Source: Octopus sinensis (taxonomy: Eukaryota). Taken from it: a DNA stretch of 64,000 nt. Position numbers and translations under genes: made by a program. Of this stretch, positions 30,725 to 30,938 are shown in pieces. Every line of letters begins with the position of its first letter. Positions within the stretch are counted from its first letter, which is position 1. The notes beneath the pieces are model-generated. The model worked only from the letters and a program-made list of their open reading frames with translations, did no database searches and had not been told where the DNA came from. The stretch spans positions 41,726,001 through 41,790,000 of the forward strand of contig NC_043009.1 in NCBI RefSeq assembly GCF_006345805.1, given 5' to 3'.

Positions 30725-30938
30725 ATTCACTTCAACGTTTAAATTTAATTTGCCAAAATATTTTCGTCGCTTTGAGACCGCGACTTGTTCACTGATGCTG
30801 CACGGAATTTTGTCAGTGAACAGGTCGCGGTCTCAAAGCGACGAAAATATTTTGACAATTAATTTAAATGTTGAGGTGAATCTAACGGTTTTTGTGAGTT
30901 TCTTAAATGGCTTATAAACACCTCCACGCTGCAATTGT
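30725..30938 (+). mobile_element. Family H1 element with ~70-bp inverted 5' duplication (fold-back)
   Basis: Arms 30725-30795 and 30813-30881 are near-perfect reverse complements with a 17-nt spacer; flanked by (TA)n; homologous to 400-548. Confidence 0.8.
30810..30858 (+). ncRNA. Putative minimal hammerhead ribozyme, G3:C8 core variant
   Basis: ttgtca-GTGAACA-g-gtcgc(ggtctcaaa)gcgac-GAA-AATATT-T-tgacaa: 6-bp stem I, 5-bp stem II, palindromic AAUAUU stem III. Confidence 0.68.

Follow-up and report, generated by a model that had tools for sequence, protein, structure and literature searches.

An inverted repeat at positions 30725-30938 of a 64,000-nt stretch of the Octopus sinensis genome (contig NC_043009.1, positions 41,726,001 to 41,790,000 of the forward strand; hereafter the window) is best read as two head-to-head copies of the pseudo-long terminal repeat (pLTR) of a protein-coding Penelope-like element, and the hammerhead motif that it carries, in which the tertiary core pair between residues 3 and 8 is G:C (G3:C8), is probably a slow self-cleaving ribozyme. 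The locus itself is a dead, ordinary Penelope remnant, and G3:C8 is the dominant state of the family to which it belongs. Judged from its sequence, the ribozyme is predicted, with confidence a little above even, to work but to be slow, and it would likely need a second copy of itself or the element's protein in order to cut. The chances appear about equal, for and against, that the family of thousands of copies maintains a naturally fixed, working G3:C8 hammerhead, which would be a third Watson-Crick state of the 3:8 pair, known so far from engineered mutants.

The G3:C8 motif in the window and across the family

The motif belongs to the minimal type I hammerheads, and its residues are numbered in the standard way; coordinates of the locus are those of the window. 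The following features were identified:

30794..30938, + strand: right arm, a short pLTR copy of the Penelope-like element, then (TA)n; 87% identity to the 5' pLTR unit of a full-length copy (L208)
30810..30858, + strand: minimal type I hammerhead motif with G3:C8 (sequence inspection, descriptor and folding)
30810-30815 with 30853-30858, + strand: stem I, 6 bp
30816-30822, + strand: core GUGAACA (G3 at 30816, C8 at 30821)
30823, + strand: extra base G, inserted between A9 and stem II; the left arm has A here
30824-30828 with 30838-30842, + strand: stem II
30843-30845, + strand: G12-A13-A14
30846-30851, + strand: palindrome AAUAUU (stem III)
30852, + strand: U17, with the predicted cut on its 3' side
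30907..30938, + strand: first codons of the element's open reading frame (ORF), within the pLTR; the ATG at 30907 is the one that opens a 608-aa frame in L208 and a 597-aa frame in a further copy (L209)
30725..30795, - strand: left arm, an inverted copy of the same pLTR, with G3 at 30792; 85% identity to the L208 unit

An earlier note, made from the letters of this stretch, had described a minimal type I hammerhead with a swapped 3:8 pair at 30810-30858, and its features and positions were borne out: the right arm has the three-way junction whose core is closed by stems I and II, stem III is palindromic, and all type I core letters are present except for the swapped pair, so that the core is G3:C8 and does not read as the literal C3/G8 motif (CUGANGA). 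The note did not mention the extra base G at 30823, a usual feature of the minimal hammerheads of Penelope elements. It had also assigned the motif to the inverted arm, where the core, stem II and palindrome are indeed repeated on the minus strand; stem I of this arm, however, is cut at the join, with about 3 pairs remaining, and the arm is broken off at a (TA)n run. The right arm starts at the usual 5' start of the family and has a tail-less 3' end that falls within a cluster of 3' ends at unit positions 142-150. An alignment of the two arms covers about 74 nt and contains 4 mismatches and 2 gaps, and the portion of the ORF present in the window is limited to its first codons.

When the right arm was folded alone, stem I was predicted with probability 0.89 and stem II with 0.99. 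A descriptor permitting any Watson-Crick pair at 3:8 matched just these two arms in the 64-kb window, and a stricter descriptor gave no match in three shuffles of 1,027,271 bases on both strands. This core escapes CUGANGA descriptors, as the earlier note had anticipated, and Rfam as well: no hammerhead family was among the 100 Rfam matches listed at E up to 10 for positions 28000-34000. A blind spot of such descriptors and models is thereby exposed.

G3:C8 also characterizes the family consensus, in line with the reading first made from this locus. A 22-mer from the motif with positions 3 and 8 left free had 3,592 exact matches in the genome (control, 0), and among the first 100 of these listed, 88 were G3:C8 and none was C3:G8. 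Only 10 sites genome-wide had both letters changed (C3:G8 in none, A3:U8 in 2), while G3 with a non-C base at position 8 occurred at 291 sites, the first 100 listed comprising 49 G, 38 T and 13 A. G3:C8 was found in 176 of 202 distinct motif-covering arms; among the 111 arms from loci chosen independently of the motif, 92 had G3:C8, 13 G3:G8 and none C3:G8. Other repeat families of the same genome have C3:G8 or U3:A8 hammerheads. A protein labelled Octopus vulgaris by its source matches this genome at up to 99%, which marks it as that of an octopus. The rest of the motif is well maintained, as each of U4, G5, A6, A9, G12, A13, A14, A15.1-U16.1, H17 and G10.1-C11.1 is carried by 186-201 of the 202 arms. 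U17 is nearly fixed (200/202), which would avoid the G3-C17 trap hinted at in PMC3884650. Median divergence from the family majority was 4.9% (194 arms). Non-CpG variation was highest in loop II (19.4%), followed by the sequence outside the motif (6.7%), stem II (6.1%), stem I (4.4%, for the most part a change to G-U), the core (3.3%, for the most part G8) and stem III (0.9%); the sole frequent stem I variant retains a G-U pair. Loose-end consensus lines of 44 and 47 contigs from two runs labelled as other organisms had G3:C8 too, a weak observation, and the assembled sample may be among these runs. Scans of metagenomes found no relative of the protein, and none of 71 exact 18-mer matches in them ran on into stem II.

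The parent element and the anatomy of its copies

The upstream extension of the short unit had 529 genome matches, and following it led to ORF-bearing copies. L208 is full length: a G3:C8 motif at 1865 is followed by the ATG at 1957 and by an ORF running to 5168 with one frameshift, and downstream of the ORF lie about 1 kb of pLTR and then a second G3:C8 motif at 6226. The hammerhead thus precedes the ATG by about 90 nt (92), and recurs about 1 kb past the stop, of an ORF for reverse transcriptase (RT) and GIY-YIG endonuclease, which supports the Penelope origin suspected in the earlier note and supplies the matching pLTRs that it had proposed to look for. In another copy (L176), ORF end, pLTR, motif and tail follow one another in an unbroken series. 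The 722-aa open frame of L175 contains DKSG, RT motifs, a CxxxCxxC linker at residue 593 and, towards its C-terminus, the GIY-YIG motif (VY..YIG) at 614-634 with two cysteines between the motifs. Telomerase TERT occupied PDB ranks 1-4 for its predicted structure (pLDDT 88.0), and among 40 aligned relatives of the protein, 7 matched Pfam RVT_1 and 4 matched GIY-YIG (PF01541). With a telomerase-like RT, a C-terminal GIY-YIG domain and pLTRs in partial tandem, with an inverted 5' copy and an optional tail at one end, the element is a protein-coding, endonuclease-containing (EN+) Penelope-like element with a hammerhead in its pLTR. A CX2-5CxxC linker before the endonuclease, as used to define Neptune and Nematis, is present, and this linker type points to one of these two clades. 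Naiad, a clade lacking hammerheads, was considered and rejected since the endonuclease is C-terminal here; two motif strings were absent from the supplement of the Naiad paper (PMC8557442). A genome search for GIY-YIG families recovered this family at none of 30 loci (7 had the U3:A8 motif of another family), and pattern-based extension beyond the tail reached short copies only.

The fold-back is an ordinary head-to-head Penelope insertion of two short pLTR copies. Arm 5' ends in the family cluster just upstream of the motif, and 3' ends fall into one cluster at unit positions 142-150 and another at 202-207. Among 67 head-to-head pairs (some of them duplicated loci), 65 had exactly one tailed arm and none had two; among the 40 pairs from loci chosen independently of the tail, 39 had one tailed arm. 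Head-to-head arms with a one-sided tail have been described for Penelope-like elements (PMC8557442, PMC11167929, PMC3846280), and in Anolis Poseidon two internal RT start sites account for this anatomy (PMC11167929). By analogy with Anolis Poseidon, the first codons of the ORF would hold two internal start sites of reverse transcription, the cDNA would run to the 5' end of the RNA just upstream of the motif, and two such cDNAs, one with a tail of about 60 nt and one without, would join head to head. An internal RT start together with the 5' RNA end would give the short copies their fixed size, so that a separate non-autonomous element is unnecessary. As for the ribozyme, the palindrome may pair two RNAs to form stem III, and the swap was possibly kept because the 3:8 pair, which positions the 2'-OH of residue 8, is preserved, presumably with activity below that of C3:G8.

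Several further observations concern the ends and pairing of the copies. The 5'-end cluster site (L176 minus strand 565-540; L208 1820-1850) can be read either as a branch point, pyrimidine tract and AG of a splice acceptor or as an initiator; a spliced-exon model for the fixed 5' end was rejected, as no upstream exon was common to 72 arms. The non-templated letter before the AG was G in 9 of 13 arms, as from a copied cap (post hoc, p ~0.001 at 25% G). Different multi-copy loop II variants were carried by the two arms in 8 of the 45 head-to-head pairs, a count in which one locus figures twice (L080, L082, L173, L177, L048, L081 and L109), although some single-letter cases may be later mutations. 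Such mixed-loop pairs suggest two RNA templates per insertion, and if this is true, they would show that two RNAs were copied at one target site.

The sister family, rival explanations and known systems

A sister family with several long open ORFs (for example, L246 6865-6915 and related loci) shares 56% protein identity over 88% of the L175 frame, with homologous N-termini, and has a homologous motif 135 nt before the ATG, compared with 92 nt in the G3:C8 family. Its motif had 2,811 matches, and C3:G8 was present in 96 of the first 100 listed. When 8 family arms were aligned with 4 sister arms, 5 of 14 pairs had both partners changed (the 3:8 pair, two pairs of stem I and one pair each of stems II and III), compared with 0-2 in slid controls. 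Covariation at 3:8 and in the stems, for which the earlier note had proposed a test, is present between the sister families.

A number of findings weigh against a working ribozyme or qualify its support. At this locus, RNA with both arms was predicted to fold into a long hairpin (-112.8 kcal/mol) that leaves hammerhead stems I and II a probability of 0.0; a read-through RNA would thus be a single hairpin, and the fold-back, according to this model, would suppress the ribozyme fold and not help it. The AAUAUU duplex is weak (-0.2 kcal/mol). The predicted cut is the starting point of just 1 arm in 251, and 5' ends show no clustering there, which, together with the whole motif being kept, implies that the templates were uncut RNA, as in Anolis Poseidon. 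G3:G8 is over-represented, being commoner than expected of a transversion; many of the 13 G3:G8 arms come from one group of near-identical ORF-linked loci, and G3:G8 is present in ORF-linked 5' pLTRs (e.g., L191). In the sister family, position 9 is C (A9C) in 94 of the first 100 sites listed, stem III is non-palindromic and two stem I pairs are broken, all of which may reflect relaxed selection in the lineage. The covariation itself compares two families, with one event per pair and without an outgroup. Finally, a Pfam search of the L175 protein itself gave no match.

The same element could carry a vestigial hammerhead, dead or nearly so, drifting or kept as a protein-binding or spacing fold, with G3:C8 as a passed-through or lucky state. 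This is the strongest rival, though it is considered unlikely. It agrees with the descent of copies from uncut RNA, with the excess of G3:G8, with the amplification of the sister family to 2,811 matches despite A9C, and with Anolis Poseidon, in which hammerhead mutants had no effect on insertion in vitro and no RNA ends were seen at the cut site (PMC11167929). It fits poorly with the canonical state of the remaining core letters, with a double change that falls on the only pair for which exchange is known to be tolerated, and with stems that covary while loop II absorbs most of the variation. A slow self-cleaving ribozyme in the pLTR is the preferred reading.

Two other explanations concern the source of the fold-back. 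The earlier note had envisaged a separate, non-autonomous or retrozyme-like family of about 150 nt; such a dedicated element of about 150-200 nt, or a retrozyme using the Penelope protein, would be in keeping with 5' ends clustering at one place and with 3,592 core matches against 529 upstream-extension and 43 scored ORF-stretch matches, numbers that come from different query types. This proposal was not supported and is now regarded as improbable: the unit is the pLTR end with the first codons of the RT+GIY-YIG element, ORF-bearing copies share the loop II variants of the short ones, the internal RT start and 5' RNA end would explain the fixed size, and none of the loci retrieved showed the short unit in a tandem array, whereas this genome has two true tandem hammerhead repeats. 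A miniature inverted-repeat transposable element, or another DNA fold-back, with a hammerhead-like fold arising by chance would also suit the long inverted arms and the TA-rich insertion sites; this is hardly credible, being refuted by the linkage to an RT+GIY-YIG ORF in L208 and contradicted by the asymmetric tail, the single non-inverted copies and the absence of descriptor matches in shuffles. The preferred source, a pLTR of a coding Penelope-like element, has close parallels in known systems.

[quoted passage not shown] Anolis Poseidon (PAc, PMC11167929) likewise has a motif near the ORF start and an optional tail between two 3' ends, but its core is C3:G8, and G3:C8 was engineered there with partial rescue only; the octopus element has its whole motif ahead of the ATG, a tail of about 60 nt and a CxxxCxxC linker in its protein. 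The PAc hammerhead cleaved only with protein and was dispensable for insertion in vitro (PMC11167929), and engineered C3G/G8C partly restored cleavage (PMC11167929, PMC8495972; also PMC3884650). In the U3:A8 hammerheads known from nature (Perreault et al. 2011, PMC3088659), the tertiary 3:8 pair has likewise undergone a compensatory change, although G3:C8 takes two transversions and not two transitions. Neptune and Nematis EN+ elements (PMC8557442) share the RT, the Zn-finger-like linker, the C-terminal GIY-YIG with CC between motifs, the microsatellite insertion bias and head-to-head copies; the likeness is one of domain features, and the non-canonical hammerhead core sets the octopus element apart. 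Non-LTR retrozymes (bioRxiv 10.64898/2026.07.22.740005) have a type I hammerhead related to pLTRs, but they are defined as non-coding repeats in tandem, each unit of which has a hammerhead, whereas this family has its own ORF and occurs in single, head-to-head or ORF-flanking copies without a tandem non-coding array. A literature search for a natural G3:C8 core returned engineered cases only, with Lunse et al. 2017, Hammann et al. 2012, and the figures and one supplementary file of PMC4209133 outside its reach.

By its double transversion the family backs the tertiary 3:8 pair with phylogenetic evidence from nature, and it bears on whether Penelope hammerheads are selected for cutting or merely ride along, for which the two sister families, G3:C8 and C3:G8 with A9C, lend themselves to a kinetic comparison in the presence and absence of the element's protein. 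If the G3:C8 hammerhead is indeed naturally fixed and working, C3:G8, U3:A8 and G3:C8 families coexist in one genome, a whole hammerhead class would have been missed by descriptor searches, and some Penelope-like families called hammerhead-less may carry such cores.

Other hammerhead-bearing repeats in the window and the genome

A second copy of the G3:C8 family was detected in the window, and it sits inside a SINE-like (short interspersed nuclear element-like) microsatellite:

400..548, + strand: single copy with G3:G8 (unpaired core) and a different loop II variant

Next to the fold-back, a neighbouring inverted element at 30277-30709 has a canonical CUGAAGA core near 30378, with a palindromic stem III and a weak stem II; its 415 exact genome matches, many of them in tandem about 555 bp apart, characterize a retrozyme-like repeat. 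Both hammerhead-bearing elements are inserted at the central microsatellite of an abundant repeat, which they split into halves at 30074-30236 and about 31085-31310, and which we take to be SINE-like.

Elsewhere in the genome, a 364-bp tandem array, every unit of which has a U3:A8 hammerhead, is inserted behind a microsatellite in L251 (5771, 6135 and 6499). As it lies beside a sister-family ORF, it was considered as the sister pLTR and rejected, since other copies continue differently. Another GIY-YIG-bearing family has a U3:A8 hammerhead (L120, L129, L132-L135, L142 and L252), and further single C3:G8 and U3:A8 motifs were found at L030, L043, L061, L165, L247 and L254.
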